Source: an uncultured Selenomonadaceae bacterium (lineage in GTDB: Bacteria > Bacillota > Negativicutes > Selenomonadales > Selenomonadaceae). Taken from it: a stretch of 64,000 bases of DNA. The position numbers and the translations under genes were made by a program. Positions within the stretch are counted from its first letter, which is position 1. Each line of letters begins with the position of its first letter. The DNA is taken from NCBI GenBank assembly GCA_905234705.1, contig CAJOIB010000010.1:6616-70615 (forward strand). Reading direction: 5' to 3'. The notes beneath the pieces were generated by a model that worked only from the letters and a program-made list of their open reading frames with translations, was not told the origin of the DNA and did no database searches. Shown here one piece after another: positions 10,828-27,702 of the stretch.

Positions 10828-10886
10828 ATTTTCAACCTTCCTTGAATGTGTTATAATCTAAAAAAATTTAGGGGAGCTGATTTTTT

Positions 10887-11117
10887 ATGGCAGAATATTA
10901 TGAAGCGTGTCCGCGTTGCGGCAGGACTAATTTTGGCGAAATTTTACACTGCAAACGCTGCGGGACTGAATTTTGCACAGTTTGTATCGGCAAGCGCACT
11001 TTGCCCGACGGCACGAAATACGAATGTTGCCCGCGTTGCGGCGCTGAATACGACGAAGACGACGATACTATTTACGTTGTCGTTACCGAAAAGGAAAACG
11101 CGCGCAATAAGCGTTAA
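10887..11117 (+). CDS. Small double zinc-ribbon protein
   Basis: 76 aa with CPRCG...CKRCG...C..C...CCPRCG pairs. Preceded by an extended -10 (TGTTATAAT) and a GGGGAG RBS. Confidence 0.55.
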   Translation: MAEYYEACPRCGRTNFGEILHCKRCGTEFCTVCIGKRTLPDGTKYECCPRCGAEYDEDDDTIYVVVTEKENARNKR

Positions 11118-11737: not shown

Positions 11738-11740
11738 AGC

Positions 11741-12187
11741 TCAGCCCTCGCGCGTAAAAACTAATTCCAAATATGGCAATTCTTTAAAACCAAGATTTTT
11801 ATAAACAGTCAGCGCCTTTGAATTGTCGTGCTCCGCCTCAAGCCGCAAAATCTTATCCGGATAAATCTCCTTGACGTACTGAAGAAATTTCGTACCTAAG
11901 CCGCGCCCGCGATATTCCTGCTCAATAAAAATATCTTCAATCCAAATGCATTCGCCGCCAAATTCGGTGGAATAACTTTTCGCAAGCATACCGTAGCCGA
12001 TAATTTTTTCCGCGTCAACAAAAACAAAGCCTTCAATAAACGCCGAGCCGCTTAAACAATTTTCAACATTCGCCGCGTAAATTTTTTCAGAGCCATTCGT
12101 TATCAGCGCGGGCGAATTGTAAAATCTGCGCATCATTCCTAAAACCGCGTCAGCATCTTCGCGCAGGATTTTTCTAATTTCAAACAT
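11741..12187 (-). CDS. GNAT family N-acetyltransferase
   Basis: 148 aa. IEDIFIEQEYRGRGLGTKFLQYV is the acetyl-CoA binding motif. Confidence 0.75.
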   Translation of the reverse strand: MFEIRKILREDADAVLGMMRRFYNSPALITNGSEKIYAANVENCLSGSAFIEGFVFVDAEKIIGYGMLAKSYSTEFGGECIWIEDIFIEQEYRGRGLGTKFLQYVKEIYPDKILRLEAEHDNSKALTVYKNLGFKELPYLELVFTREG

Positions 12188-12188
12188 T

Positions 12189-13550
12189 TTAATTCGTCAA
12201 ACTCCTAACCGGCGCAGGAATACGCCCGCCGCGCGCAATAAACGCTTCACTGCTCCAATTATTTCTAATGGGAACAATCGGACAATAGCCCAGCAAGCCG
12301 CCAAATTCAACCACATCGCCAACTTTAGCATTCGGCACGGGAATTATCCGAACAGCGGTAGTTTTATTATTGACAACGCCAATAGCCGCCTCGTCAGCAA
12401 TAATGCCGCTCAAAGTCGCCGCGCTGACATCGCCCGCAACCGCGATCATATCCAAACCAACGCTACATACACACGTCATAGCTTCAAGTTTCTCAATAGA
12501 CAGACTGCCGATATTCACGGCGTTAATCATACCTTCGTCTTCACTGACGGGAATAAACGCGCCGCTCAAACCGCCAACGTGCGAGCTAGCCATTAAGCCG
12601 CCTTTTTTAACAGCGTCATTTAACAAAGCAAGAGCCGCAGTCGTACCAGGCGCACCGCAAGCCTCTAAGCCCATTTCTTCCAAAATGCGCGCGACCGAAT
12701 CACCAACCGCCGGAGTCGGCGCAAGCGATAAATCCACAATTCCAAATTGAACACCCAAACGCCGCGACGCTTCCTGCGCGACAAGTTGACCAACGCGAGT
12801 AATTTTAAACGCAGTCTTTTTAATCGTCTCGGCAATTTCAGTAAAATTCGCGCCCTTCAAATCTTCCAGCGCGTGTTTGACAACGCCAGGACCGCTGACG
12901 CCCACATTGATAACAGTATCAGCTTCGCTCACGCCGTGAAACGCGCCCGCCATAAATGGATTGTCATTCGGCGCATTGGCAAAAATTACCAGCTTAGCAC
13001 AACCAATAGCCTGTTTGTCGCGCGTCAATTCAGCTGTGCGTTTCAAAATTTCGCCCATCTCGCGCACGCAGTCCATATTTATGCCCGCCTTAGTTGACGC
13101 CAAATTGACTGAGCCGCAAACTAAATCTGTCGTTGCTAATGCTTGCGGAATTGACTCAATCAAAATCCTGTCGCCGCGCGTGTAACCTTTCTCAACCAGC
13201 GCGCTGAATCCGCCAATAAAATTTACTCCAACTTCCTTAGCCGCCTTGTCAAGAGTTTCAGCAATCGGAACGTAGCTGTCAGTTTTGCAGGAATCCGCCG
13301 CAATGGCTATCGGCGTCACGGAAATTCGCTTGTTGATAATCGGCACGCCATATTCCGCTTCAATATCTTCGCCGGTTTTTACGAGAAATTCAGCAGTCTT
13401 TGTAATTTTATCATAAACATTCCGGCAAAATTCGTGAAGATTAGGGTGCGCGCAGTCTCTCAAAGAAATTCCCATTGTTATCGTCCGCACGTCTAATTTA
13501 TTTTCAGTTATCATTCGGTTTGTTTCAAGTATATCTTCAATCGTTATCAA
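12189..13550 (-). CDS. UPF0210 / DUF711 (PFL-like) family protein
   Basis: [27 protein letters not shown]...[11 protein letters not shown]...GGFSALV...VGLDMIAV. I chose the TTG at 13550 because GGGGG lies 7 nt upstream. The track ORF extends to 13727. Confidence 0.8.
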
Positions 13551-13692
13551 AGTTTCAGCCCCCGTCAAAAATTTATCTTCAAATTCTATCAAAAAGTTAT
13601 TCAAAGTCAAGAAACATTTTAACTTGATTTTTGCGCGCGCGGTAATTAAAATATATGGAGTTTTTTTATAAATTGTCGAGGTGGTATTATTC

Positions 13693-14070
13693 ATGGGACA
13701 TCCTGTAACAACAAACCCGTTAATCATTATGCTGATTAATATGACGGTGGTATTCGTCGTGCTGGTTTCGCTAAGTGTATTGATTAATTTGATTCACATG
13801 GTAGATCCGACGAAACAGCCGGAAGTCAAAGAAGACGAAGGCGAAGCGGAAACAGCGGCGATAGTATCAAAATTGCAAGCCGCGCCAAAAGTTGAGCCCG
13901 AACCCGCGCCGGTTGTCGAAGAGGGCATACCGCCTGAAGTTATCGTTGCAATTTCGGCGGCTATTGCGTGTTGCGGAATTTCCGGCAATGTTCGCGCAGT
14001 GCGTGTTGTCAATAATAATAAATCCGCGTGGCGGCAAAATGCGCTCAACAGCGGCTTGACGAACGTTTAA
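13693..14070 (+). CDS. Na+-translocating decarboxylase small (gamma/delta, OadG-like) subunit
   Basis: N-terminal TM helix ([25 protein letters not shown]) followed by an Ala/Pro/Glu-rich linker. It sits directly upstream of the beta-subunit gene. Confidence 0.65.
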
Positions 14071-14083
14071 GGAGGCGCGGCAG

Positions 14084-15217
14084 TTGGAATTTTTTAATGC
14101 ATTTTCGGTATCACTACAGGCAGTTTGGAATGACAGCGGCTTTTCGGCATTCACCGTCGGCAACGGAATTATGATTGTCGTTGGAATTTTACTTTTATAT
14201 ATGGCGTTCGTTAAAGAATTTGAGCCGCTACTTTTAGGACCAATCGCGTTTGGCTGCATACTGGCGAATTTCCCGAACACAGGATTTTTCGGCGAAGAAA
14301 TGAACGTTATGCAGGCTATTCGCTATGGTATAAACTATGAAATTTTCCCGCCGTTGATTTTCTTAGGTATCGGCGCAATGACAGATTTTGGACCATTGCT
14401 CGCGCGTCCTTCGACTTTACTTTTGGGTGCGGCGGCTCAAATCGGCGTTTTCGTTGCATTAGCCGGCGCAATGATTGTAGGTTTCGACATTAAAGAGGCA
14501 GCGGCTATCGGAATTATCGGCGGCGCTGACGGTCCTACTTCAATTTATCTGTCAATAAAATTAGCCCCGCACTTACTCGGCGCAATCGCAGTCGCGGCGT
14601 ATACTTATATGTCGCTCGTGCCGATGATTCAGCCGCCCATTATGAAGGCTTTAACTTCACAAAAAGAGCGCGAAATTGTTATGACTGAGCTCCGCACGGT
14701 TACGAAATTTGAGCGCGTAGTTTTCCCTGTGGTTGTAACGATTTTTATCAGCTTGCTCTTGCCGCCAATCGCCGCATTGCTCGGAATGTTAATGCTTGGA
14801 AATCTCCTGCGCGAAAGTGGCGTAACAGACAGACTTTCAGACACCGCGCAAAATTCGCTGTGCAATATCGTAACAATCTTTTTGGCAACAGGCACAGGTA
14901 TGACGATGAACGCGAAAGATTTTCTTGTGCCAGAAACTTTGTTGATAATCTGCTTGGGCTTAGTGGCGTTTATGGGCGGCACTGCTGGCGGCGTTATTTT
15001 CGGAAAAATTATGTGCAGAATGTCGGGCTGGAAAGTTAATCCGCTTATCGGTTCAGCTGGTGTTTCTGCTGTTCCAATGGCGGCGCGCGTCAGTCAAATC
15101 GTTGGTATGAAGTCTAAGCCTGGCAATTATCTTTTAATGCACGCAATGGGACCAAATGTCGCGGGCGTTATCGGGACGGCTGTTGCTGCCGGTACGATGC
15201 TTGCTATGCTCAAATAA
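14084..15217 (+). CDS. Na+-translocating decarboxylase beta subunit (OadB/MmdB/GcdB family)
   Basis: 377-aa polytopic protein: ...[19 protein letters not shown]...[12 protein letters not shown]...[14 protein letters not shown].... TTG start with an AAGGAGG RBS. Confidence 0.85.
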
Positions 15218-15292
15218 ATTCTAAAACTTTGAAGGATAAATATTCTTCGCGGCGAAATGTAATTTAGTTACAAAATTTGTGGGGGCGATTTA

Positions 15293-16217
15293 ATGGCGAA
15301 CGATAAAGCACGCCGAGGCGACGAAACTGCCGGCGATAAGAAGGGTATTCTGCTTGAAACCGGTACTAATGAATTTGAAATTGTCGAGTTCAGCATTGGC
15401 AAAGTTAATTACGGAATAAATGTTGCGAAAGTCCGTGAAGTCATTCAGCGCGCGCCGGTTACCGCAATGCCGCAGGCTCACCCGTACATTGACGGGCTTT
15501 TTACCCTGCGCGGCAAAGCTATTCCGCTGGTTAATCTTCCGCGCTGTTTGAATGTGGCGTCCGGCGAAGAAGCTAAAAATATTATCGTTACTGAAATTAA
15601 TAATTACGGCATTTTGGAAAGACATGGAACCCGCGCCCGAAGTCGGCGACCAATCGCGCGTTGTCGGTATTATTAAAATGAGCGACCGAATTGTCCTGTT
15701 GCTCGACTTTGAAACGATTATTGCGGAAATTAATCCGGAAATTAACGCGAAACTTACCACGGTTGAAGACGCCACTGAAGATACCCGTTCGATGCGCTCA
15801 AATATTCACGTGGTTGTTGCGGAAGATTCGGCTATGTTGCGCGATTTGCTTGTTACGACTTTGCACGATTCGGGCTACAGATTTGTTCGCGATTTCGGCA
15901 ACGGTATGGACGCTTGGGAATATCTGCGCACTCTCGCCAACAAAGATGGTCCTATTCATATGCACGTGGGTATCATTGTTTCTGACGTTGAAATGCCGAA
16001 AATGGACGGGCACAGACTTTTGAAACTCGTCCGCGATAACGACCGCCTGCATGAAGTTCCATTTGTACTGTTTTCTTCGTTGATTAGTGAAGAAATGCGC
16101 TTAAAGGGCGAATCACTTGGGGCGAGCGCGCAAATTTCTAAGCCGGAAATTAATCAGCTGATTGATATTCTCGACAAGCTGATTTTCGGAAAAACTTTGA
16201 AGCCGGTACAAGATTAA
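15293..16217 (+). pseudogene. cheV: Chemotaxis protein CheV (CheW domain + receiver), disrupted by an internal deletion and frameshift
   Basis: Frame 1 encodes the CheW-like N-terminus (...TGTNEFEIVEFSIGKVNYGINVAKVREVI...IIVTEINNYGI). Frame 3, from about 15612, encodes FWKDMEPAPE...VVGIIKMSDRIVLLLDFETIIAEINP plus a complete receiver domain (VVVAEDSAMLRD...VSDVEMPKMDG...SKP). About 13-14 codons are missing at the junction. Confidence 0.75.
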
Positions 16218-16244
16218 TTTCGACGAATATTTTAATCGATTGTG

Positions 16245-16279
16245 AAAATGCATTCGTGAAAACGAGTGCGTTTTTTTTT
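16245..16279 (+). terminator. Rho-independent terminator after cheV, abutting the RBS of the next operon
   Basis: GCATTCG-TGAAAA-CGAGTGC hairpin (one G.U pair) with an A-tract upstream and a T9 run at 16271-16279. The GGAGAGGGG RBS starts at 16280. Confidence 0.65.
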
Positions 16280-16296
16280 GGAGAGGGGCAACTTCT

Positions 16297-19248
16297 ATGC
16301 AGAAAAATCTTACCACCGCGGAAAAAATTTCTGATTTGTTGCAGAGCCATTCAAATTTGGAAATTTCTAATCCGTACAGTTTGAAAAGCGACGAACTTGA
16401 AGCCAACGAAATTTGCTTTTACAAAATAAATCTGCTGACATTCGACGAAGAATATCCGCACCGCGAGGCGTTTGAAAATGTTTTGCAGAGCCTTGACAAT
16501 GCGGCTTTTAATTTCGTGTACATTCTCAGCGGCGACGAGCGCGGCATCGAACTTTATATCGGCGTGGTGAAAAATCACAACGAAAATCAGCCCGTCCTCG
16601 GCAAACTTTTGAACGCGGCGAATTACGGAAAAAATATCGCGGGCGCATTTGCGGGGAATTTCGGCGGCAGTTCCCTTGAAAAATTAACCGGTCAAAATTT
16701 GACAAACGCCGTGATAAATTCTGCGCGACAATTCAAAAACGCGGGCGTCATTGTCGGTATCCCGTCCGTCAACGAAACCAAGGACAGCAAATACGGTTTC
16801 CAGGGGATTGACAGGCTGATAAACAGTATGCTCGGCGCGAAATGGCGAATTGTGGTTGTTTGCGAGCCGGTGAATAAATCTGAAATTGCGAAAATCCGCA
16901 GCGAAGTTTACAATCTTTACAATGAATTAGCGCCGCTCGCCCGTCAATCCGTTCAAAAATCTACCAGCAGTAATCAGACGCTGAGCCGCGGCACAAACGA
17001 ATCTACCACTAAGGGCACGAATTATTCTGACAGCGAAAGTTCGTCCGATTCGCACGGCAAACAAAATGATAATTCAAATTCGAGCCACTCCGACCAGACA
17101 AGCAAATCTTACGGCGAAAGTACGACAAAAACCACCGGCAGCAATGAAAGTACCGGCGTCAGTTCCGGCAGTTCGAGCGCGGTTACTTTGGAAATTGCGA
17201 ATAAGCAGGCGGCGGAAATTATTGACTACATCGACAATGAACTTTTGGAGCGCGTGAAAATCGGATTCAGCCGCGGCTTTTTCAAAACTTCGATTTATTA
17301 TATGGGCGAAAAGCCGATTGACGCCGAGCGCCTCAAAGTTGGAATTATTTCGTTGTTTCAAGGCAGCGGCTCATCGTATAGTCCGTTGCGCGCGTATCCG
17401 CTGAATGTCGAGCGCGATTTTAAAATTTTAAACAGTTACCAAAGTTTTTACATCAGCAATGAAAATAATTTGCCAGAAAAATTGACGCTGGCGAGCCGCC
17501 CGCATTTTGACAGCCGCCTTGGTTTGAATACCTATTTGACGTCGGGCGAAGTCAGCCTAATCGCTGGTTTGCCGCAAAAAGAAATTCCTGGTATCACCGT
17601 GAAGGAGAGCGTCGAATTTGGTTTGAATTTTAATCAGAGCGACGGCGAGATTATTTTGGGCAATTTGATTCAGAAGGGGCGCGAATTGCCTAGCATTCCA
17701 ATGAAAATCAGCCGCGAAGTTTTGAGCAAACACGTCTTTATTGCTGGCGTGACTGGTTCGGGCAAAACTACGACCTGCCACAAAATTTTGACGGAAGCCG
17801 CGGTTAAATTTTTGGTGATTGAGCCTGCGAAAACTGAATACCGCGCGCTGATAAATTCGCCGCATTTCGGCAACGTCGTTGTCTTTACGGTGGGCGACGA
17901 ATTGACCGCGCCTTTTCGGTTGAATCCGTTTGAATTGGTGCGCGGCGAAAGTGTTTCTGCTCACGTCGATATGTTGAAGGCTACGTTTACTTCGTCTTTC
18001 CCAATGGAAGCGTCGATGCCGCAGATTTTGGAAGAGGCGATTTACAAAATTTACGAAGACAAGGGCTGGGACATTGACACAAATAAAAATTATCTGATTG
18101 AGGCGCGCGCCGATTATAAAATTGGTGATGAATTTCGCGCAGAATTTGATACTTTTCCGACGCTGACTGATTTTTTGACGGCGCTTGAAAAAATTGTTGA
18201 CGAAAAAGGATTTAGCGACCGCCTGCGCGACGATTATCGCGGCTCACTGATTAGCCGGTTTTCCAATTTGACGAAAGGCTCAAAGGGCGCGCTTTTCAAC
18301 TGTCGCCGCTCGATTGATTTTGAAAAACTGATTAATCAAAACGTCGTCATTGAAATGGAAAATTTGAAATCGGCGGAAGATAAGGCGCTGTTAATGGGAT
18401 TTATTTTAACGCGGCTGGCGGCGGTTATCAAACGGCGAAACAAATTGGATAAAAATTTCCGGCACATAACGCTGATTGAAGAGGCGCACCGGCTTTTATC
18501 GAAAGTTGAATTAGGCGACGGCGGCTCAAAGCGGACGGCGGTTGAAACTTTCACAGATTTACTCGCGGAGATTCGCAAGTACGGCGAAAGTCTGATAATC
18601 GTTGACCAGATACCGAATAAACTTGCGCCCGAAGTTTTGAAAAATACCAACACGAAAATAATTCACCGGCTTTTTGCGCGCGACGACAAAGAAGCGGTTG
18701 GTGATACGATGCTGATGGACGACAAGCAGAAAGAATATTTATCGGCGCTGGAAACTGGGCAGGCGATTATTTTTAGTGAAGGAATGCGCCGCCCCGCGCA
18801 CGTCAAGATTCAGAGCGTGACGGATACCGGCGACAGCGTTGTTGACAATGACGCCGTTAAATCGCAGTTTGTCAAAAATTTTGGCGCGTGGTATTGCGAT
18901 TTGGAAATTTCGCGCAGGTTTAATCGGGCGGTTTATGATTTGCTGAAAAAAATTGCGGTTGAATATCTCGACAAAAATTCATTGGAAATTGAAACTTTAA
19001 ATGCTGTGGCGAAAATTCGCTCGGCTGTGAAAAATTTCTGCGCGACTTTCGATTTTGAAGAAATTGCGGCGGCTGACGTTACGAAATATCTTGCGGAAGA
19101 ATTTACAAGACTCAAAGCAGGTGATAAAATTTTTGAACGGCGGCTTGAGAATTTTCTGAATTTGCTGATTGGCGATTTTACTTTGGAAAAAATTTCGGGT
19201 GACAGGGAAAATTTGAAGTTGCTGATAAATATTAAACGAGAATTTTAA
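16297..19248 (+). CDS. Large HerA/FtsK-superfamily (DUF87-like) ATPase with an unknown N-terminal domain and a Ser/Thr-rich linker
   Basis: 983 aa. Walker A is IAGVTGSGKTTT (about nt 17744-17776). Walker B/sensor is HITLIEEAHRLL (about nt 18463-18492). The HerA-type C-terminal block is LAEIRKYGESLIIVDQIPNKLAPEVLKNTNTKIIHRLFARDD. Residues ~215-300 are low-complexity Ser/Thr/Asn (GTNESTTKGTNYSDSESSSDSHGKQNDNSNSSHSDQTSKSYGESTTKTTGSNESTGVSSGSSS). Confidence 0.7.
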   Translation: MQKNLTTAEKISDLLQSHSNLEISNPYSLKSDELEANEICFYKINLLTFDEEYPHREAFENVLQSLDNAAFNFVYILSGDERGIELYIGVVKNHNENQPVLGKLLNAANYGKNIAGAFAGNFGGSSLEKLTGQNLTNAVINSARQFKNAGVIVGIPSVNETKDSKYGFQGIDRLINSMLGAKWRIVVVCEPVNKSEIAKIRSEVYNLYNELAPLARQSVQKSTSSNQTLSRGTNESTTKGTNYSDSESSSDSHGKQNDNSNSSHSDQTSKSYGESTTKTTGSNESTGVSSGSSSAVTLEIANKQAAEIIDYIDNELLERVKIGFSRGFFKTSIYYMGEKPIDAERLKVGIISLFQGSGSSYSPLRAYPLNVERDFKILNSYQSFYISNENNLPEKLTLASRPHFDSRLGLNTYLTSGEVSLIAGLPQKEIPGITVKESVEFGLNFNQSDGEIILGNLIQKGRELPSIPMKISREVLSKHVFIAGVTGSGKTTTCHKILTEAAVKFLVIEPAKTEYRALINSPHFGNVVVFTVGDELTAPFRLNPFELVRGESVSAHVDMLKATFTSSFPMEASMPQILEEAIYKIYEDKGWDIDTNKNYLIEARADYKIGDEFRAEFDTFPTLTDFLTALEKIVDEKGFSDRLRDDYRGSLISRFSNLTKGSKGALFNCRRSIDFEKLINQNVVIEMENLKSAEDKALLMGFILTRLAAVIKRRNKLDKNFRHITLIEEAHRLLSKVELGDGGSKRTAVETFTDLLAEIRKYGESLIIVDQIPNKLAPEVLKNTNTKIIHRLFARDDKEAVGDTMLMDDKQKEYLSALETGQAIIFSEGMRRPAHVKIQSVTDTGDSVVDNDAVKSQFVKNFGAWYCDLEISRRFNRAVYDLLKKIAVEYLDKNSLEIETLNAVAKIRSAVKNFCATFDFEEIAAADVTKYLAEEFTRLKAGDKIFERRLENFLNLLIGDFTLEKISGDRENLKLLINIKREF

Positions 19249-19264
19249 TTTAGGGGGAAGCTTT

Positions 19265-19900
19265 ATGTCAATTTTTGGAGCAATTTTTTCTGGGATAAGT
19301 AGCGTGCTGAGCGTAGTGTCAAATGTATTCACGCCGATTTTGACGAAAATTCTTGGACCGGCGCTTGAGAAACTTGGGCGGGCGTTTGAGGCTTTTTTCA
19401 AAGAATTGGGGTTGATTGAGCCGGAAGAGAAAGTTGAAGAAATTGGAGACCGCGCATTGCAGGCGGAAGTCGACGAAATTCATCCGGTTAAAATTGAAAC
19501 TTTCGACAATCACGAAAAATATTTGGCGGCGCTCAAAGAATATGAGCCGAGCGCTGAAAAATCCGCGCTGATTCCGGTTGACGATAAACTTCACAAAGGG
19601 CTTGAGGTTTTAATGGGGCTGGCGATTTCGCGCTACGGGCAGTCTATGAGCGAATTTGGGCAGATTATTTTGAATAACCCCGAATTTTACAGTCAATTTG
19701 GCAGGCTGGCGGAAATTGGCAGTATCGCCCGCGATAAAACTGAAACTTTCGCCGATATCGTGAATTACATTGCGGGCAAAAGTATGAGCAGCGAAAAAAC
19801 TGACACGGCGATTGACGCGCTCGTTGACATTGAGAAAAAAGTTAATCCGGAGGCGACTGACGCTGAAATTTTGAAAACTGTTAGCGATTTGAAAAAGTGA
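19265..19900 (+). CDS. Hypothetical protein with small-residue-rich hydrophobic N-terminus
   Basis: 211 aa. The N-terminus is MSIFGAIFSGISSVLSVVSNVFTPILTKILGPAL (Gly/Ser-zipper-like), followed by an acidic helical region. A GGGGGA RBS lies 16 nt after the upstream stop. Confidence 0.6.
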   Translation: MSIFGAIFSGISSVLSVVSNVFTPILTKILGPALEKLGRAFEAFFKELGLIEPEEKVEEIGDRALQAEVDEIHPVKIETFDNHEKYLAALKEYEPSAEKSALIPVDDKLHKGLEVLMGLAISRYGQSMSEFGQIILNNPEFYSQFGRLAEIGSIARDKTETFADIVNYIAGKSMSSEKTDTAIDALVDIEKKVNPEATDAEILKTVSDLKK

Positions 19901-20373
19901 GGCGATTGATTTTGTTGCAATATTTTTTAGTTATCTGCAAAAATCGGTTTTACGTTTACCGAACTGACGGCGCGCCGGAATATTTTGGTGGCAATGATTA
20001 TTTTGAATATGAGCAGAGCAAGATTCGCGAGGCGGCGGCTCAACTTGTCGAGGAAATTTTGAGCAACAACAATCTTGCCGACAGAAACGAATTACAATTT
20101 GCGCTGATTGAGAATAGCGACGCCGTGCGCAATGAGATTGTGCTGAAGGAACTGAAGAATTTGGTAGTTCAGCGTTACGCGGTGAATGATTTAGTTTACG
20201 CGGCGATGGTTGATTTGGCTAAAAATCCTGCGCTGTACATTCGCGAATTGGGCGTAAATTATGACGGCGAAAGTCACCATTTGGACGCGAATAATCCGAT
20301 GTGGCGGGGCGCTTATAGTTTGCTGGCGTTGACGATTGAGCCGATTGAATTGTTAAAGCGCGTGGGGAGGTAG
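19897..20373 (+). CDS. Hypothetical protein
   Basis: 158-aa ORF. Its GTG start overlaps the upstream stop (GTGA). No family recognised. The start codon is uncertain. Confidence 0.5.
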   Translation: MRRLILLQYFLVICKNRFYVYRTDGAPEYFGGNDYFEYEQSKIREAAAQLVEEILSNNNLADRNELQFALIENSDAVRNEIVLKELKNLVVQRYAVNDLVYAAMVDLAKNPALYIRELGVNYDGESHHLDANNPMWRGAYSLLALTIEPIELLKRVGR

Positions 20374-20377
20374 TTTT

Positions 20378-21922
20378 ATGGAAAAGATTATTTGTGGCAA
20401 ATGTCACGCCGAGAATAATGCAAAGCGGCATTTCTGCGCGAAGTGCGGGGCTTTTCTGCACACGGATTTTGACGCGAAAGTTTATGCGTTGCCGGAAGTT
20501 AAAATGATGCGCGTTGTGGAAAATTTATTGCGAGTTCCGCACCAGCCAATAAATTGGGACGACGTGACGGACGCTTACACGGCGAAGGCTGAAAAATGGC
20601 AGGCGCTGTTCAATGTCCCTGGAATGGGCGCGGAAACAAATTCTGCGGTTGTCGAGAAGATTGAAGATTTTTTGAATCTGTGCCGCAATGCCGATTTTCA
20701 AATTGCGTTCGTCGGTACGATTAAAACGGGCAAATCGACGCTGATAAATGCGCTGTTAGGCAAAGAATACGCGTCAATGGACGTGACGCCGGAAACCGCC
20801 GCTTTGACGAAATTTCGTGCCAGCCCGCGCGATTATGTTGACGTGACTTTTTACACGCAAAAGGAATGGGACAACCTTTGGGCTTCGCGCTCCAAGGACG
20901 CAACCGATTTTATGAAGGAATACGAATTGCTTGACGGCGATTCGCAAAAATCTAAATGGATTAATCAGCCGCAGCGCCATATCGAAATGGCTAACGAAGA
21001 TATTCAGCAGGAATTAAAAATTTGGTCGAGTTCACAGCGGGTGGAACATTATTTCGTCAAGGAAATTGAAGTTGGAATTTCGACGTTGCCGCGGGATTTT
21101 CCGGCGCAGGTTGTATTCGTCGACACGCCAGGATTATCAGATCCGGTTGCATATCGTTCGGAGCTGACGAAAAATTATATCCGGCGGGCAAATGCGGTTT
21201 TCGTTTGCGTCGAGGCGCAGAAAATGATGTTCGAGGAAATGAACACAATCCAATCGGTAATGTCGCTGTCTTCGCACGACAAGAGCAAAGTTTTTGTCAT
21301 AGCCACGCACTGGGACACATTGCACGACCCAGAAACGGATTGGGCAAAGCAGAAAAATTTTTACATTCGGCGCTTAACCGGACCGGCTTTTTATGACAAT
21401 CAGCAAATGGCGGCGGATAATATTTTGTATTCGGCGGCGTACATTTATAATCTGTGCAAAAATTTTCACGCGCTCGACCCGAATAACAGGGCTGATAAGC
21501 GGCAGATTCGCACGCTTGAAGATTTCGGCGATTATTTTGACTGCGCGCCCGACGATTTGCGGACGATTGGCGAAAAGACTAACATTGTGGCGATTAGGAA
21601 AATTATTCGCGACCGGCTCGCGGCGAATTATAAAAAATTTTTGGCGGGCGATATTAAGCGGAAATTTATGGACGTGAATTTTAATCTGAATCGCGTTGCC
21701 AGCGAAAATAAAGCGAGTATGATTGAGCGCTTAACGGCGTCCTATGCTGACGAACAAGAATTAGCCGCGAAATTGGATGAACAGCGCAAAAAATGCGATA
21801 ACGTCCGGCAAGTTTCCGACCAGCTTAACGAAATTATGAAGAAGGTTAAGCACAAGACTAAAACGCGCGCCGATGTTATTTGCGGGAAATTGCGGCTGAA
21901 ATTGAGCGAGTCGAAAAAATGA
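20378..21922 (+). CDS. Dynamin-like GTPase with N-terminal zinc ribbon
   Basis: Zinc ribbon is [20 protein letters not shown]1 is [16 protein letters not shown] (about nt 20714). G2-region Thr is [10 protein letters not shown]3 is [10 protein letters not shown] (about nt 21121). G4-like is VIATHWD. The C-terminal tail is helical and charged. Confidence 0.75.
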
Positions 21923-22863
21923 GCGCGGCTATAACTTTGCAGGAAATTTCTGCTAAATTGGATTATGGGCTGATAGGCGACGGCGCTTTGAAAGTTTCAG
22001 CGTTTAAATTTGCCGCGGAAGCTGATGAAAATTCTTTAGCGGTAGTACTCAGCGATAAAGAGGCGATTGACACTGCGGCGCGTGCGGTATTGACGACGCC
22101 GAGGATTTTGCCGATTGATAAAACTTTTCTGTACTGCAATTTTAAAAAGATGAGCGCGGCGATAGTTGACGTTGCGCGGCTGATGATTGACGCCGGAATT
22201 TATCCCGATTATGAAAAAAATTTTGAGCAGGTTGAAAAGCACTGCGCGATGTTCGGTAAAAATTTTGAGATTGGTGAAGGCAGTTACGTTGGCGCTTTTG
22301 CAAATATCGGCGAAAATGTTAAAATTGGCAGGAATTGTAAGATTGGCGCGGGCGTTTATATCGGCTCTGACGTTGAGATTGGCGACGGCGTGAAAATTCA
22401 TTCTGGCGCGCGGATTGGCGCTAATTGCCATTATCATTTTACGCAACACCACAAGCAGAAAAGTTTTTGCGGGATTGGGCGGGCGCTGATTGAAGATGGC
22501 GTTGAAATTGGCTACAACACGGTGATTCAGCGCGGCTCTTTGTCCGATACCGTGATTGGCGCGGGTACGATTATTGGCAATTTGGTTGAGATTGGACACG
22601 ACGTAAAAATCGGCAAAGATTGTTTGATAGTTTCGCAGGCGGGCATATGCGGCGGCGTGGAGATTGGCGAACGGGTTCAGATTTACGGGCAAGTTGGAAT
22701 TGCTGACAGGGTTAAAATTGGCAGCGACGCAACGATTATGGCGAAATCCGGCGTTACCAAAGACATTCGCGCAGGGCAAGTTGTTTCGGGAATGTTCAGC
22801 CGCAGTCATTTAGACGAATTGAAACGGCAGGCGAAATTTAGGAAACTGACTAAGGGGGAATAG
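21919..22863 (+). CDS. LpxD-like left-handed beta-helix N-acyltransferase (out of lipid A context)
   Basis: The ATG overlaps the dynamin-like stop (ATGA). It has an LpxD-type N-terminal domain ([43 protein letters not shown]), hexapeptide repeats, a conserved catalytic-His context ([10 protein letters not shown]) and an LpxD-type C-terminal helix ([17 protein letters not shown]). Confidence 0.7.
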
Positions 22864-22866
22864 ACT

Positions 22867-23658
22867 ATGGGCGGAGGCGGTGGCTGCGGAGATATTTGTT
22901 GCATTACGCATTGCGGCTTTTGCTGTGTTTTTAAATGCAGTGACTGCGGCGATTGTTGCGTGGGTCATTGTAGCGGAGATTGTGGCGGTACTCGTGTTTC
23001 CAGTGGCGGTGGCGGTTGTTCTGATTATCAAGAAGATCCGCAAACTCGGCACGCGGAGATTATTGCTAACGAATTGGCGGAAATGAAGAAGCGCTCGACT
23101 GAGGACGCCAAACGCGAAGAGGACGCCATTCTCAAAGACATTAACGAAACCATGGACGAATTTATTGATTGGCTCAAAAAAATTAACAGCGAACCGTACG
23201 GCGGGCGCAGTCTGAATATTAATATCACGAAAATTAATGAGCTCAATGAAGAATTGCGAAACGCGGTTATCGGCTCAATCGGCAAACATTTGGATTCTAA
23301 GCTGGTTATGACTGACGAAAACGTCAAGCTGATTCTTTCCGATATGAATGATAAGACGCGCAAGAAAAAATTTGACGAGTTTTATCGGCAAACTCTGCGC
23401 GACGCTATTAGGAATTTGATTAAAATTATTGAAGATTCCGTTCAAAAACAATCTGAGAGTATCGAGCGCGAAATTCAAAATCGCATTAATGAAGTCCAGC
23501 AAAGTATGTCCGAAGAGGCGGGCGCGTTTGAGGAACTTCAGCAGATTAAACAGCAGAAAAATTTAGGTATGGCGGAAAAACGCGTTGAATATATGTACTA
23601 CGAAAATCTGTGCGATATTATGTTCGACCAGCTGAAACTTTCCGGCATTAAAAGGTGA
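22867..23658 (+). CDS. Cysteine-string / coiled-coil protein
   Basis: 263 aa. The N-terminus is MGGGGGCGDICCITHCGFCCVFKCSDCGDCCVGHCSGDCGGTRVSSGGGGCSDY, with 13 Cys in 51 residues. The remaining ~200 aa are charged heptad-like helices. An AAGGGGG RBS lies 8 nt upstream. Confidence 0.7.
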   Translation: MGGGGGCGDICCITHCGFCCVFKCSDCGDCCVGHCSGDCGGTRVSSGGGGCSDYQEDPQTRHAEIIANELAEMKKRSTEDAKREEDAILKDINETMDEFIDWLKKINSEPYGGRSLNINITKINELNEELRNAVIGSIGKHLDSKLVMTDENVKLILSDMNDKTRKKKFDEFYRQTLRDAIRNLIKIIEDSVQKQSESIEREIQNRINEVQQSMSEEAGAFEELQQIKQQKNLGMAEKRVEYMYYENLCDIMFDQLKLSGIKR

Positions 23659-23664
23659 TTCGCT

Positions 23665-25011
23665 ATGCTCAATTTAATTTCCGGAAATGAAAATATTCTT
23701 GCGCTGATGTACGCTATGTCGAGCGATTTGGATTTGAAAGATAATTCCGCGCGTTTGGAAAATCTTCGCGCAGTGGTGGAAAATTCGGCGGAAGTCAAGC
23801 CGTCGGTTTTCAATTATCACGTCGAGGCGGCGGAAAAAATTTTGATTTACAATACGCTTTACAATTCAATGACTTGGTTAACGAAAGAGGAATTTGCTCA
23901 ACTTGGCGGCGAAATTTTTGATGACGAATTGCGGCGGAATTTTCTTGAGAGCGGAATTTGCGTGGCGGCGAATGTTGACGAGCGGGCGAATTATCATAAG
24001 TGGCGGATTCTTTTTCAAAAAAAGTCCGAGCATTTGTCGGTGAATATTACCACGACGCTGAAATGCAACGCGCGCTGTCCCTATTGCTACGAGCACGGCG
24101 TCAAGCACATTGACTTTGATGACACTAAGATTGACGCGCTGATAGATTTTATTAAGCGGCACAAAAAAAATTCGCCGGTTAAACTGAATTGGTTTGGCGG
24201 CGAACCTTTTATGAATCCGAAAATTATTGACACCGTGACGCGGCGGCTCGGCGAAATCGGCTTTCCATTTTTCTGCTACGCCATTACCAACGGAAATTTA
24301 TTGACGCGGCAAATGATTAATACCAAATTCAAGCAATGGCATATTCGCGGCGTTCAGATAACTTTGGACGGCACGGCGGAACAATACGCGGCGCGCAAAA
24401 ATTATACCGGCAATCAGCGCGATGTTTTCAAAAAAATTTTAAATCGTATTCAATGGCTCGCTGAAGCAAATATTCACGTTGACGTGCGGCTGAATATCGA
24501 CCGCCAAAATCTGTGCGATATGCTCAATCTTATTTACATTTTGCAGGCGCGTTTTGACGGCGAAAAAAATATTTGTTATTATCCGGCGTTTGTTACGGGC
24601 TTGCAGGATAAATTGACTGAAACTGAGAAATTAGATTTTGTCAAGGAAATGTTTAACGCGGTTGCCAATTCCGCCAAACTCAGCATTACAAATCGGCTGT
24701 ATTCTTTCCCGCGCAGTATTCCGTGTATGCGCAATGATCCGCAGTCATTTTCTGTTGATGTTTACGGGCGGATTTATAATTGTGAGCATTTGGTCGGGCG
24801 CGCTGAAAAATCGTTAGGAACTTTAAAACGTTTGCCGACAAAAATTAATGACGCGCGGCTTGAAGAAAATCTGCGCGAGGAATGCGGAAGTTGCGTATTT
24901 CTGCCGAAATGTATGGGCGGCTGTGCGTCGAATTTGGAAACCGGCGATAGCGCGTGCCTGATTGAAAAATATTTAATTAAAGCATATATGCAGTATATGT
25001 GCGAACGCTAG
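23665..25011 (+). CDS. Radical SAM enzyme with C-terminal SPASM domain (peptide/protein maturase type)
   Basis: The CxxxCxxC motif is CNARCPYC (nt 24064-24087). The SPASM motifs are CMRNDPQSFSVDVYGRIYNC (Cx13Gx4C) and CGSCVFLPKCMGGC (Cx2Cx5Cx3C). The N-terminal ~110 aa resemble the RRE/PqqD-like leader-binding region of such maturases (ILIYNTLYNSMTWLTKEEFAQL...LESGICV). Confidence 0.85.
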   Translation: MLNLISGNENILALMYAMSSDLDLKDNSARLENLRAVVENSAEVKPSVFNYHVEAAEKILIYNTLYNSMTWLTKEEFAQLGGEIFDDELRRNFLESGICVAANVDERANYHKWRILFQKKSEHLSVNITTTLKCNARCPYCYEHGVKHIDFDDTKIDALIDFIKRHKKNSPVKLNWFGGEPFMNPKIIDTVTRRLGEIGFPFFCYAITNGNLLTRQMINTKFKQWHIRGVQITLDGTAEQYAARKNYTGNQRDVFKKILNRIQWLAEANIHVDVRLNIDRQNLCDMLNLIYILQARFDGEKNICYYPAFVTGLQDKLTETEKLDFVKEMFNAVANSAKLSITNRLYSFPRSIPCMRNDPQSFSVDVYGRIYNCEHLVGRAEKSLGTLKRLPTKINDARLEENLREECGSCVFLPKCMGGCASNLETGDSACLIEKYLIKAYMQYMCER

Positions 25012-25020
25012 GAGGTAAAA

Positions 25021-25383
25021 ATGGACGACATTGCAAAAATTTTGGAACAGCAGGAAGAAATTTTACGCTCAATACACCGGCTGGAGGAAGAAGTTAGCCT
25101 AATCAAATTTTTACACCACAGTCAGTACGACGAAACAAATGCGCGGCTTGAAATGTTCGAGCGGTCATTGCGGCAAATCGACGAACAACTTGCACTTTCA
25201 AATATGAGCCAAGAATCGCGCGACGACAAAATAAAAAAATTGCTTAGTGAATTTCAGCGTGCGAATCAATCGCGGCGGCTGAATATGATTGAAGAATTGC
25301 TCCGGTTAATCGCCGCCAATCAGATAATGGATTCGCTCGAACCGCCGAAAAAACCGCGGGGCAATAAATCGCAGAAAAAATAA
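25021..25383 (+). CDS. Small coiled-coil protein, hypothetical
   Basis: 120 aa, predicted helical and charged (ILEQQEEILRSIHRLEEEVSLIKF...), with a basic tail (PPKKPRGNKSQKK). An AGGAGG RBS lies upstream. Confidence 0.55.
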   Translation: MDDIAKILEQQEEILRSIHRLEEEVSLIKFLHHSQYDETNARLEMFERSLRQIDEQLALSNMSQESRDDKIKKLLSEFQRANQSRRLNMIEELLRLIAANQIMDSLEPPKKPRGNKSQKK

Positions 25384-25400
25384 TCTTGGGAGGAATTTTA

Positions 25401-26795
25401 ATGAGCATACTAGCTTCGGTCGTAGTACCGCACCCGCCTATCATTTTGCCGGAAATTGGCAAGGGCGAAGAATCCAAAATCGCCGCAACTACCGCCGCTT
25501 ATAAAGAAATTTCAAAGCGCGTGGTCGAACTTGCGCCCGATACGATTGTTATCACCAGCCCGCACTCGATTATGTACGCGGATTATTTTCACATTTCGCC
25601 TGGCGAATCGGCTAGCGGGAATATGGCGAGATTTCGCGCGCCCGAAGTCGATTTGACTATTAACTATGACGTTGAATTTGTTGACAAATTGAGCGCGGCG
25701 GCTATGGCTGAAAATATTCCCGCCGGTAAAATTGGCGAGCGCGAAAAAAGTTTAGACCACGGCACGATGATTCCGCTTTATTTTTTGGAAAAAGCAGGTT
25801 TAGATTTTGACGCGGTTAAATTTTTGCGCATAGGGCTTTCTGGTTTGCCCGCGGCGGCGCATTATCATTTTGGGCAGGTTATTTCAAAGGTTGCGGACGA
25901 ATTGAACAGGCGCGTTGTATTCGTGGCGAGCGGTGACCTTTCGCACAAACTCAAAGCGGATGGTCCTTACGGTTTTGTTGAAGAAGGTCCGAAATTCGAC
26001 GCCGAGGTTATGGAAAATTTATCCGACGAAGATTTTTTGAAATTGTTGACGATGGATAATACGATGTGCAATCGCGCGGCTGAATGCGGCTTGAGGAGTT
26101 TTTGGATAATGGCGGGCGCGCTCGATAAAAAATCCGTTCAAGCTGAAAAATTGTCCTATGAAGGACCTTTCGGCGTTGGCTACGGCGTTGTTTGGTTTAA
26201 CATTAACGGCGTTGACAGTTCGCGGAATTTTGCCGCCAAGCTTGAAAATTTTAAGCATGAAGAATATTTAAAGCGCATTGAAACTGAAGACGAATACGTG
26301 AAACTGGCGCGCTACAGCCTTGAAACTTACATTAAGACGCACAAGGCGGCGGAAATGCCCAAAGATTTGCCTGCTGAAATGTTGAATCGGCGTTCGGGAA
26401 CTTTCGTCAGTCTTCATAAAGACGGGAATTTGCGCGGCTGTATCGGAACATTTTTGCCGACAACTGAATCTATCGCGCAGGAGATTTTGCAAAACGCCAT
26501 TTCTGCCTGTTCGAGAGACCCGCGCTTTTCGCCGGTCGAAGAATCCGAAATTGAAGACCTTGACATCAGCGTTGACGTTTTGTCTGAACCGGAGCGAATT
26601 TTTGACGTCAAAGATTTGGACGCAAAAAAATACGGCGTTATCGTCGAGAACAACGGACGCCGCGGTTTATTGTTGCCGGATTTGGAAGGCGTTAATACCG
26701 TGCAAGAGCAACTCGCCATCGCTATGAAAAAAGGCGGTATCCCCGCCAATGAAAAAGTTAACGTGTGGCGTTTCCAAGTAATTCGCCATCATTAA
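25401..26795 (+). CDS. Fusion of class III extradiol dioxygenase-like (LigB/Memo superfamily) domain and AMMECR1 domain
   Basis: N-terminal domain: VVPHPPIILPE...ITSPHS...SLDHGTMIPLYFL...VASGDLSHKL. C-terminal AMMECR1 domain: SGTFVSLHKDGNLRGCIGTF...ACSRDPRFSPV...YGVIVENNGRRGLLLPDLEGV. Start set at the ATG at 25401 after a GGGAGGA RBS. Confidence 0.8.
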   Translation: MSILASVVVPHPPIILPEIGKGEESKIAATTAAYKEISKRVVELAPDTIVITSPHSIMYADYFHISPGESASGNMARFRAPEVDLTINYDVEFVDKLSAAAMAENIPAGKIGEREKSLDHGTMIPLYFLEKAGLDFDAVKFLRIGLSGLPAAAHYHFGQVISKVADELNRRVVFVASGDLSHKLKADGPYGFVEEGPKFDAEVMENLSDEDFLKLLTMDNTMCNRAAECGLRSFWIMAGALDKKSVQAEKLSYEGPFGVGYGVVWFNINGVDSSRNFAAKLENFKHEEYLKRIETEDEYVKLARYSLETYIKTHKAAEMPKDLPAEMLNRRSGTFVSLHKDGNLRGCIGTFLPTTESIAQEILQNAISACSRDPRFSPVEESEIEDLDISVDVLSEPERIFDVKDLDAKKYGVIVENNGRRGLLLPDLEGVNTVQEQLAIAMKKGGIPANEKVNVWRFQVIRHH

Positions 26796-27232
26796 ATCGC
26801 CGCATCTTCGTAATTTTCTTCATCGTCATAAGATGGAGTATTTAAATTGTCCCAAAAAATTCTGTAGTTCATACTGGATTTGACTTGCCCGCGCGCCGGA
26901 CAATCCGCGTCTTTGTGCGTGAAAATGTGATGAACTTCCTGCCCCGACGGAACAATTAATTCTTTCGGATAAAAATGAACATTTCGCGCAGACCAAATCC
27001 AAAAGTCGTTGTTGTTCACTGCGCGAATGTTTTCCAGTAAAAAGTGCGTGATTCTGGCATCCTGGTCGCCGGAATTTATGAAGTGCCCGTATAAAACCGC
27101 TTGCCCTTCATTCAAAATGAGTTTATCGGCTTGAAATTTCAAATTCGCTCCGGCGCTCGCAACGCCATTTGCAAAAATAAAAATCGCAACAGCCATAATC
27201 GCCGCAACAAAAAAATTTTTCAAGATAATCAC
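26792..27232 (-). CDS. Hypothetical exported protein
   Basis: 146 aa with an N-terminal signal/anchor (FFVAAIMAVAIFIFANGVASA). No family recognised. Its stop overlaps the stop of the convergent AMMECR1 gene (TTAA). Confidence 0.5.
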   Translation of the reverse strand: MIILKNFFVAAIMAVAIFIFANGVASAGANLKFQADKLILNEGQAVLYGHFINSGDQDARITHFLLENIRAVNNNDFWIWSARNVHFYPKELIVPSGQEVHHIFTHKDADCPARGQVKSSMNYRIFWDNLNTPSYDDEENYEDAAI

Positions 27233-27237
27233 GCCCC

Positions 27238-27702
27238 TTAAAAAATTTCTTGCGCCCGCTGTTCAAATCGTGTAACAATTTCCGTGTGAAGTGATTCGTT
27301 GAGCTCCATTAACGCCAGCCAAAAATCACTCCGGCGCGGAAATTCTTTTTTTGGCAACATCGTTTCGACAAAATCTAATGCGTCGTCGCCGAAGCAAATT
27401 TTTCGCACAATCGCCGTTACCGCCACGCCAAAAGTTATTATCGACGGTATCACCCACGGCAGGGCGTTCGCCACAATCGGAATTAATTTTTTCAGCGCAA
27501 GGTATATCGCCGACGCCAGCACGCCGATTAATACGCAAACCGTTTTGAAAAAAACCATAACCGCGCCAATGAATACGCCCGCCAATACTGCCAGCGCTTG
27601 AAAAATCAGCCGCAAAAATCCCAGCCCGCAAATCAGCAAAATCGCCGCCGCTATCACAATTCCAACCATAACTAACGCCCCTCTCGATTTAAAGCGTGTC
27701 AA
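27238..27702 (-). CDS. Hypothetical integral membrane protein
   Basis: 154 aa with about four hydrophobic helices and a soluble C-terminal tail. Located downstream of upp. Confidence 0.5.
   Translation of the reverse strand: MTRFKSRGALVMVGIVIAAAILLICGLGFLRLIFQALAVLAGVFIGAVMVFFKTVCVLIGVLASAIYLALKKLIPIVANALPWVIPSIITFGVAVTAIVRKICFGDDALDFVETMLPKKEFPRRSDFWLALMELNESLHTEIVTRFEQRAQEIF

Follow-up and report, generated by a model that had tools for sequence, protein, structure and literature searches.

The 64 kb window analysed here, i.e. the whole stretch of contig CAJOIB010000010.1 from an uncultured Selenomonadaceae bacterium, carries on its plus strand eight densely packed genes (positions 16297–25383), one of which (21919..22863) encodes a paralogue of the acyltransferase LpxD. 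Judging from its sequence, this gene encodes an LpxD-family protein that has been neofunctionalised and is not a lipid A enzyme: it belongs to a clade of its own, and it is embedded in a cassette with a dynamin-like GTPase and a helical partner protein with a Met-Gly…Cys N-terminus. As to its function, it is possible, although we rate the chance at somewhat below even, that the LpxD-like enzyme acylates the partner protein, i.e. that it lipidates the N-terminus of the partner with a fatty acid donated by acyl carrier protein (acyl-ACP).

The LpxD-like open reading frame (ORF) runs on the plus strand from the ATG at 21919 to the TAG ending at 22863 and encodes 314 amino acids; an in-frame TTG at 21880 is an alternative start that would give 327 amino acids, but homologues and independent gene calls favour 21919. 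The product is a left-handed beta-helix protein of the LpxD family with an alpha/beta N-domain (residues ~1–100), a hexapeptide beta-helix (~105–290) and a C-terminal helix (297–311), and carries a predicted catalytic His227 within the signature GHD as well as a predicted oxyanion Gly245. An earlier note on this DNA, made from the sequence alone, had proposed the LpxD domain order, which is borne out by the NCBIfam model NF002060 (LpxD subfamily), covering residues 4–312 against profile positions 3–330 of 345, and by the structural matches given below. The assignment to the LpxD family is sound. The cutoff of NF002060 was barely passed (211.1 bits versus 207), the LpxD equivalog model TIGR01853 was failed (197.5 bits versus a cutoff of 242.5), and the Pfam model of the LpxD N-domain, PF04613, did not match, Pfam detecting hexapeptide repeats only; PADLOC had no match for the gene. 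When the AlphaFold model (mean predicted local distance difference test score, pLDDT, 79.8; above 85 in the N-domain; low confidence at residues 232–279) was compared with the PDB by Foldseek, the 25 best matches were all full-length LpxDs (E 4e-14 to 1e-9), with TM-scores of merely 0.34–0.53. Identity to the solved LpxDs is 25–30 %.

A search of 5.8 billion proteins separated this group from ordinary LpxDs. It yielded 84 clusters scoring 162–686 bits (all but one at 190 or more), none of which has PF04613, whereas canonical LpxDs with PF04613 came at 178 bits or less. The LpxD-like clade was monophyletic in 100 out of 100 neighbour-joining bootstraps, and the GHD signature was present in 83 of the 84 clade clusters versus none of 36 others.

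In the alignment underlying the bootstraps, we compared 31 clade members residue by residue with canonical LpxDs (33 sequences) and with the E. coli enzyme (from NC_000913), taking the roles of the E. coli residues from a review (PMC6286764). The general base H239 (H227 here), the oxyanion amide G257 (G245) and the glycines of the acyl chain pocket are retained in all 31 clade members, and the catalytic His context aligns with E. coli QIAHNVVIG as previously described. In contrast, the uracil-stacking residue F41 is Val or Ile in 30 of 31 members, the second stacking residue, Y47, is deleted in all 31 and the pyrophosphate contact H276 is variable, while the three positions are 88–100 % conserved among the 33 canonical LpxDs. 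The residues contacting the 3-hydroxyl group are likewise changed, i.e. D232 to Gly (30/31) and Q236 to Glu or Asp, as is the sugar/ribose contact N240 (printed Q240 in PMC6286764), which is Asp in 31/31; D216, for which the review states no role, is Gln in 31/31. The GFG loop, which holds F183 and lies by the 3-O-acyl pocket of the acceptor, reads Cys/Ser-x-Tyr in the clade, and in the window GANCHYH aligns with E. coli GADGFGY, in agreement with the earlier claim on this loop. Among clade sequences with identities of just 34–40 %, there is no variation at His227, Asp228, Gly245 or the acyl-pocket glycines. Considering that H239, G257 and the pocket glycines are retained and that the contacts to uridine diphosphate (UDP) and to the 3-hydroxyl are replaced or deleted, the donor-side chemistry is predicted to be conserved, whereas the acceptor site and the reader of the 3-hydroxyl are predicted not to be.

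The distribution of the clade points in the same direction. Scanning 185,579 species-representative genomes gave 30 loci, and around 35 distinct loci are known to us overall. Many of the 30 come from Selenomonadaceae or Selenomonadales, which are diderm, and further hosts, on contigs of up to 190 kb, are Lachnospiraceae (i.e. Clostridia), Eisenbergiella, Oribacterium, Dorea, Eubacterium and Eubacteriaceae, with one locus each from Fretibacterium, UBP6 and Fibrobacter metagenome-assembled genomes (MAGs). Among Firmicutes, lipopolysaccharide (LPS) is confined to Negativicutes and Halanaerobiales, and in Negativicutes lpxD sits within an lpxACDIBK cluster (PMC5007114). No lpxA, lpxB, lpxC or fabZ was present anywhere in the 64 kb window, which extends the earlier observation that none of them is nearby, and no cassette locus has lpx genes within 10 kb of the LpxD-like paralogue; as a positive control, the canonical lpx cluster in locus L040 was detected. 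The only exception to the absence of fabZ within 10 kb is L051, in which a fabD-fabG-fabF-fabZ/FabA-like set (10579–14009) directly follows the cassette; this could be a housekeeping fatty-acid cluster placed there by chance, or it could serve specifically to provide the LpxD-like enzyme with acyl groups. In IMG/VR there was no relative of the LpxD-like protein, in phage and plasmid collections there was no homologue of the partner protein, and the plasmid matches of the LpxD-like protein were ordinary LpxDs at less than 44 % identity. The cassette is sporadic in gut and rumen anaerobes, beside variable, partly defence-like genes.

Within the cassette, the LpxD-like gene is tightly linked to its neighbours. 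Its start codon and the TGA stop of the dynamin-like gene (20378–21922) share the sequence ATGA, and the partner gene starts at 22867, 3 nt past the LpxD-like stop, preceded by a Shine-Dalgarno-like run, AAGGGGG. Both the overlap and the Met-Gly5-Cys neighbour (MGGGGGC, with 13 Cys within 51 residues) had been reported before and were confirmed from the sequence, while the span formerly given for the LpxD-like feature, 21919–23020, was right in its start and wrong in its end: the ORF stops at 22863, and a feature ending at 23020 also includes the 51 Cys-rich codons with which the partner gene begins. Promoter and terminator counts in 15200–27400 were not above those of shuffles. Based on tblastn of the window proteins against all loci, the cassette comprises, in this order, a HerA-like ATPase (~980 amino acids), proteins of ~205 and ~154 amino acids, the dynamin-like GTPase, the LpxD-like protein, the partner (230–265 amino acids), usually a radical SAM/SPASM enzyme, and variable coiled-coil proteins. 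Since the same arrangement recurs in around 35 distinct loci, these locus features are not due to chance. The order of dynamin-like, LpxD-like and Met-Gly protein genes was retained in every sufficiently complete locus, which, together with the fusions described below, makes the link of the LpxD-like gene to both neighbours a very strong one. The earlier note had asked whether the LpxD-like proteins form a divergent clade that always neighbours dynamin-like or SPASM genes; the clade is indeed divergent and the dynamin-like neighbour is there, but a SPASM gene is missing from four loci.

The partner gene encodes 263 amino acids starting MGGGGGCGDICCITHCGFCCVFKCSDCGDCCVGHCSGDCGG. Its N-terminal anchor region, which is the proposed site of modification (residues 1–51; 22867..23019, plus strand), consists of Met-Gly5 followed by repeats of the CC[VI]x[DN] type and is predicted to be disordered, with pLDDT below 50 in the AlphaFold model. 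The helical domain (residues 52–263; 23020..23658, plus strand), with long helices predicted at 58–108 and 162–260, defines an unnamed family of dynamin-partner proteins: no relative of the partner was found in Pfam, NCBIfam or PDB sequences, and Foldseek on the model returned nothing significant (best E 0.085, TM below 0.3). Kinship to PspA/Vipp1/ESCRT-III, brought up by N-termini in which hydrophobic residues follow Met-Gly, was considered and rejected, as hhalign against E. coli PspA gave a probability of 0.3 % and Pfam PspA_IM30 did not match. All 32 partner genes beside an LpxD-like gene encode a Met-Gly start, as do 77 of 83 close partner homologues, the rest being mostly fragments or mis-called starts. 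Four partner-family representatives (P0236, P0245, P0257 and P0266) start MCC… or MCWGC… rather than Met-Gly and would, after excision of the Met, expose an N-terminal Cys like that of classical lipoproteins.

Gene fusion of enzyme and partner is seen in 16 of the 84 clade clusters, in which around 220 residues, corresponding to a diverged version of the partner, are joined to the N-terminus of the LpxD-like domain. Of these fusions, 13 start with Met-Gly, mostly followed by Cys motifs, and all 16 have an intact His motif; the fusion loci retain a separate partner gene as well.

The Cys-rich repeats of the partner look like a substrate for another enzyme of the cassette. Directly downstream of the partner gene lies a gene (23665..25011, plus strand) for a radical SAM/SPASM peptide-maturase-like enzyme of 448 amino acids, which matches Pfam Radical_SAM and contains the motifs CNARCPYC (CX3CX2C) and CGSCVFLPKCMGGC (CX2CX5CX3C). 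Its SPASM domain is recognised by TIGR04085 (39.1 bits versus a cutoff of 27), its best full-length family matches are CefB, Clo7bot, TIGR04463 and PapB, all far under the respective cutoffs, and its nearest solved chain is 5wgg/5why, which we take to be CteB. Among 253 CC dipeptides in 77 partner-family N-termini, Val or Ile follows at +1 in 247 and Asp or Asn at +3 in 217, hence the repeat consensus CC[VI]x[DN]. The ranthipeptides made by PapB use a Cys-X3-Asp/Glu motif (PMC9413430), and the consensus apparently follows the same logic if Asn is assumed to serve as an acceptor, too. Every Cys-type locus has the radical SAM enzyme, and it is lacking in four loci without the Cys motif (L026, L027, L028 and L030), whose partners have hydrophobic, Cys-free N-termini with a Met-Gly start and whose LpxD-like genes are intact, including GHD. 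Two more Cys-type loci, found from the partner side, carry both the LpxD-like and the radical SAM enzyme. The idea of the earlier note that the Cys string is S-palmitoylated in the manner of SNAP-25 is weakened by this co-variation of CC[VI]x[DN] with the radical SAM/SPASM gene and by the four loci that have an intact LpxD-like gene and neither the Cys motif nor the radical SAM gene. In L026 (7379–8437) and L030 (7417–8463), an extra gene of around 350 codons without a family lies between the 154-amino-acid and dynamin-like genes, the two copies being 23 % identical (E 2e-26).

Further insight into the origin of the Met-Gly start comes from remote partner homologues. A partner profile search of 1.84 billion representatives gave 302 cluster-50 representatives at E≤1e-3, and 88 of 106 full-length partner-family sequences among the matches listed start with Met-Gly. 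The remote partners, which hhalign identifies as true homologues of the cassette partner with a probability of 99.9 %, have no Cys and show amphipathic N-termini, e.g. MGFWSSLW… or MGLFSFISS…. Some belong to minimal cassettes, i.e. an orthologous dynamin-like GTPase (~490 amino acids) with two to three paralogous helical proteins (~235–250 amino acids), and no LpxD-like, HerA or radical SAM gene was found in these within the stretches examined. Minimal cassettes lie at L044 6926–10702, L045 4954–9064, L047 7811–10771 and L043 26–2244, and one of their helical proteins starts MGFF… or MGIF…; L045 also has a truncated copy of 362 amino acids that is 83 % identical to the dynamin-like protein of that locus. 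The ancestral module would thus have paired a dynamin-like GTPase with a helical partner whose N-terminus binds membranes, the Met-Gly start would predate the acyltransferase, and the partner N-terminus would have been swapped among amphipathic, Gly/Ala/Val-rich and Cys-repeat types. That the homologous N-termini are of amphipathic or membrane-binding types supports a role of the Cys-rich segment as a membrane anchor.

The following scheme is inferred from these data as far as the source of the acyl group, its acceptor, the site of attachment and the chemistry of the crosslinks are concerned. The LpxD-like enzyme, presumably a trimer of left-handed beta-helices, would take a fatty acyl group from housekeeping acyl-ACP, with His227 as the base and Gly245 forming the oxyanion hole, and because D232 and Q236 are lost, the transferred chain would not need to carry a 3-hydroxyl. 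Once the initiator Met of the partner has been removed, the enzyme would acylate its extreme N-terminus. LpxD forms an amide on an amine, while LpxA forms an O-ester; since LpxD chemistry is thus the N-acylation of a primary amine, and since a Cys thiol is not a universal acceptor, given that the LpxD-like gene is intact (GHD) in four cassettes with a Cys-free partner, the alpha-amine of Gly2 would be the preferred site. In Cys-type cassettes, the radical SAM/SPASM enzyme would then crosslink the CC[VI]x[DN] repeats into thioether rings, and the resulting compact, lipidated anchor would hold the helical partner at the cytoplasmic face of the membrane, where the dynamin-like GTPase acts. In this complete form, i.e. 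transfer from acyl-ACP to an N-terminal Gly by an LpxD-derived beta-helix enzyme as a functional analogue of eukaryotic N-myristoylation with its origin in lipid A biosynthesis, together with a thioether 'ranthi-anchor' at a full-size dynamin partner, we consider the scheme somewhat unlikely.

Several points weigh against acylation of the partner. The Cys motif tracks the radical SAM enzyme and not the acyltransferase, and the four loci lacking both probably represent a single evolutionary event, as all are from Lachnospiraceae with the common extra gene of around 350 codons. Among the LpxD-linked partners, no conserved residue peculiar to them was identified as an acceptor, and the fusions can also mean that the enzyme is tethered to the membrane instead of reflecting an enzyme–substrate relation. 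Moreover, the Met-Gly start is not specific to acyltransferase cassettes. Since the partners of the acyltransferase-free minimal cassettes also start with Met-Gly and an amphipathic helix, Gly2 may be no more than an ancestral trait of an N-terminus that binds membranes, and if the Met-Gly start predates the acyltransferase, it is therefore removed as specific evidence for N-acylation. Finally, host names were used as given in MAG record titles, and the monoderm assignments rest on those.

Which other roles could account for such an enzyme? That it is an ordinary lipid A lpxD in an odd location, as the earlier note had formulated its null hypothesis, or a second isozyme such as LpxD1/LpxD2 of Francisella, is hardly credible. 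The host family Selenomonadaceae is diderm with LPS (PMC5007114), NF002060 is just passed and there is precedent for LpxD paralogues that remodel lipid A; yet the UDP and 3-hydroxyl contacts are lost, the cutoff of TIGR01853 is failed, and the clade extends into Lachnospiraceae and Eubacterium, is never beside lpx genes and always resides in a dynamin cassette. Because the clade is distinct, occurs in these hosts, is never beside lpx genes and is devoid of the UDP-binding residues, the null hypothesis is rejected at the family level. It is very improbable, too, that the protein is a non-catalytic trimerisation or scaffold module bundling three helical partners: although trimer formation is obligatory for LpxD, whose C-terminal helices make up a three-helix bundle (PMC6286764), and the fusions would yield a trimeric stalk, the invariance of His227, Asp228, Gly245 and the acyl-pocket glycines at 34–40 % identity would be unexpected for a pure scaffold.

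If the protein is an active acyltransferase, its acceptor could still be something other than the partner N-terminal amine. We regard as clearly unlikely that it acylates a membrane lipid or small-molecule amine, e.g. an aminophospholipid head group, so as to alter the local membrane for the dynamin-like GTPase, with the partner serving as a tether. The retained catalytic machinery and acyl pocket next to a rebuilt acceptor site would fit, as would the N-domain, whose good conservation in the clade leaves room for the binding of a defined ligand; the fusions place an anchor and a helical domain on the enzyme itself, and the Met-Gly start exists without the enzyme. However, this leaves unexplained the strict adjacency to the partner gene when unfused and the retention of a separate partner gene in the fusion loci, and the cassette has no conserved lipid-metabolism gene, the fab genes of L051 being a single case. 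S-acylation of the N-terminal Cys residues of the partner, similar to palmitoylation, appears quite improbable. The LpxD-like gene is present in all Cys-type loci, and most close homologues have 8–14 Cys in their first 60 residues; since these outnumber the Asp and Asn available for thioether links, free thiols should remain. Against this stand the four loci that combine an intact LpxD-like gene with a partner without the Cys motif, the co-variation of this motif with the radical SAM/SPASM gene instead, and the amide and O-ester chemistry of LpxD and LpxA; we know of no thioester-forming member of the family. Acylation of the partner protein at its N-terminus, with the reservations given above, is the most likely of these readings.

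The LpxD-like protein shares with LpxD the three-domain architecture, the left-handed beta-helix, the catalytic His, the oxyanion Gly, the acyl-pocket glycines and a basic C-terminal helix, which in LpxD is where ACP docks. It differs in the replacement or deletion of F41, Y47, H276, D232 and Q236, in the change from HN to HD, in the lack of an lpx context, in its presence in Lachnospiraceae and Eubacterium, and in its fusion to the partner in some lineages. In eukaryotes, N-myristoylation by N-myristoyltransferase (NMT) and palmitoylation by DHHC enzymes are analogous in function only, with a cytoplasmic Met-Gly-Cys start and, as proposed here, a lipid anchor at the cytoplasmic face. NMT is an enzyme of the GNAT fold using acyl-coenzyme A, whereas the cassette enzyme is a beta-helix relative of LpxD that presumably uses acyl-ACP, there is no DHHC protein in the cassette, and the Cys residues resemble those of radical SAM substrates. 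The systems for ranthi- and sactipeptide maturation, i.e. PapB/PapA, CteB/CteA and CefB, have in common with the cassette CX3CX2C plus SPASM and motifs akin to CC[VI]x[DN], and maturases of Cys-rich peptides are the best family matches of the radical SAM enzyme. In contrast to their leader–core peptides, the cassette repeats are at residues 7–40 of a 263-amino-acid protein with a helical domain of 200 residues; besides, the cassette has no protease or exporter, and the radical SAM enzyme is under every family-specific hidden Markov model cutoff.

With BDLP, DynA, LeoA/LeoBC 'Eleos' and CrfC, the cassette shares a Dynamin_N GTPase plus accessory helical proteins, with weak profile matches to LeoA, LeoBC and CrfC; within the literature searched, none of the described dynamin-like systems has an LpxD-like acyltransferase, a radical SAM enzyme or a Met-Gly…Cys partner. 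Transfer of a fatty acyl group to a protein amine, as proposed here, is also the activity of HlyC and the other toxin-activating acyltransferases (TAATs) of RTX toxins, of the GNATs that N-acylate peptides made by ribosomes and modified after translation (RiPPs), and of Lnt. The TAAT, GNAT and nitrilase-like folds are unrelated to the beta-helix of LpxD, and Lnt is extracytoplasmic and uses a phospholipid donor. Literature searches returned no description of the clade, the partner family, the cassette or LpxD-like protein acyltransferases, and PADLOC, Pfam and NCBIfam contain no model for the clade, the partner family or the cassette. Each cassette enzyme comes from a known superfamily; the cassette itself appears to be undescribed.

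Known protein lipidation in bacteria is almost wholly extracytoplasmic (Lgt/Lsp/Lnt) or toxin-specific (HlyC-type). If true, lipidation of the N-terminus of a cytoplasmic protein would be a new route of membrane anchoring, categorically new for bacteria, and a lipid A enzyme would have been recruited to act on a protein. The hypothesis is directly testable by co-expression and mass spectrometry. Apart from this, the cassette brings a radical SAM enzyme of the RiPP type, which we propose acts on a full-length protein, together with a dynamin-like GTPase, in most cases a HerA-like ATPase, and an unnamed partner family of around 300 clusters (50 % identity). There is also a practical consequence for annotation: since the score lies only just above the cutoff of the NF002060 subfamily model, family members from Lachnospiraceae and Eubacterium are liable to be labelled 'UDP-3-O-acylglucosamine N-acyltransferase', which could falsely suggest a capacity for lipid A.

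Regarding the remaining genes of the cassette, the dynamin-like GTPase (514 amino acids; 20378..21922, plus strand) matches Pfam Dynamin_N at 70.5 bits (cutoff 27) and has an N-terminal zinc ribbon, CGKC…CAKC, with a weak match to Zn_Ribbon_1. Its nearest solved chains are 5owv and BDLP (2j68). There is a weak match to CrfC, and the weak matches to LeoA (PADLOC, E 3e-12; NCBIfam DLP_LeoA_gen, 33 bits versus a cutoff of 325) reflect likeness at the level of the GTPase domain only. It is present in every complete locus, including the minimal cassettes, in which it is 31–33 % identical. The first gene of the extended cassette (16297..19248, plus strand) encodes a HerA/FtsK-like P-loop ATPase of 983 amino acids with a Pfam DUF87/HerA central domain, partial NCBIfam matches to HerA families far under their cutoffs, PADLOC matches to HerA and mad8, and HerA (8xau, 4d2i) as the nearest solved chains; it is syntenic in most loci and absent from the L049/L050 architecture. 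Its residues ~215–300 form a long, low-complexity linker rich in Ser, Thr and Asn, and the protein partially matches NF033849, 'serine-rich protein' (160.7 bits versus a cutoff of 650); this match of a linker-bearing ATPase suggests that NF033849 may describe relatives of the cassette ATPase.

Two small genes separate the ATPase and GTPase genes, both without a match in Pfam, NCBIfam or PADLOC. The product of the first (211 amino acids; 19265..19900, plus strand) has a hydrophobic or amphipathic N-terminus (MSIFGAIFSGISSVLSVV…), is conserved in position in extended cassettes at 28–100 % identity and is sometimes duplicated (L029, L036, L051). The second (153 amino acids; 19912..20373, plus strand) is conserved in position, too; its ORF opens with GTG at 19897, and the start at 19912 was set by gene calls in L001 and L002. 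At the other end of the cassette, a coiled-coil accessory protein of 120 amino acids (25021..25383, plus strand) has no family in Pfam or NCBIfam, relatives detectable by tblastn in the Selenomonad group alone, and a C-terminal motif EELLRL…N.IM. In more general form, [LV]EE.[LI]RL….N.[IL][ML], this motif is common to small and medium coiled-coil proteins of the cassettes, with IEELLRLIAANQIMDSL as the version at 25021–25383 of the window and further carriers at L003 13762–14124 and 14125–14787, L004 11671–12534 and L007 11664–11999; it could be a docking peptide for an enzyme or ATPase.

In L049 (7646–14424 and 18324–19295), and likewise in L050, a cassette without HerA has two dynamin-like genes flanking LpxD-like, Cys-protein, 237-amino-acid and radical SAM genes, surrounded by an integrase, two AAA_14/DUF4143 genes, an FtsZ/tubulin-like gene and a YeeR_C-domain gene. 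Throughout, the flanks vary by locus and include WYL-WCX regulators, KAP NTPases, a kinase, integrases and AAA_14/DUF4143 genes, which is consistent with, but no proof of, a mobile, possibly defence-related module. PADLOC gave generic matches at the level of HerA, LeoA and viperin only, with no known defence system matched as a whole. Altogether, the context suggests, as context only, a membrane-directed stress or phage-defence module.

Upstream of the cassette, the window (13681–16217) contains oxaloacetate decarboxylase gamma and beta genes and a CheW-response-regulator (CheV-like) gene, which are housekeeping genes not found in the other loci. Downstream, at a distance from the last cassette gene that varies with the start chosen but is at most 17 nt, a single gene (25401–26795, plus strand) fuses AmmeMemoRadiSam protein B (Memo/LigB-like) to protein A (AMMECR1). 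Since it is adjacent solely in the nearest relatives L001, L002, L010 and L011, it was rejected as a cassette member and is probably outside the cassette; it is apparently co-oriented and possibly co-transcribed with the cassette here. In L030, an LRAT/NlpC-P60-like gene (14186–15181) lies near the cassette. In three distant loci, i.e. L007 (13751–14758), L026 (12504–13511) and L030 (12530–13624), the cassette is directly followed downstream by WYL-WCX regulators, which often accompany defence systems.

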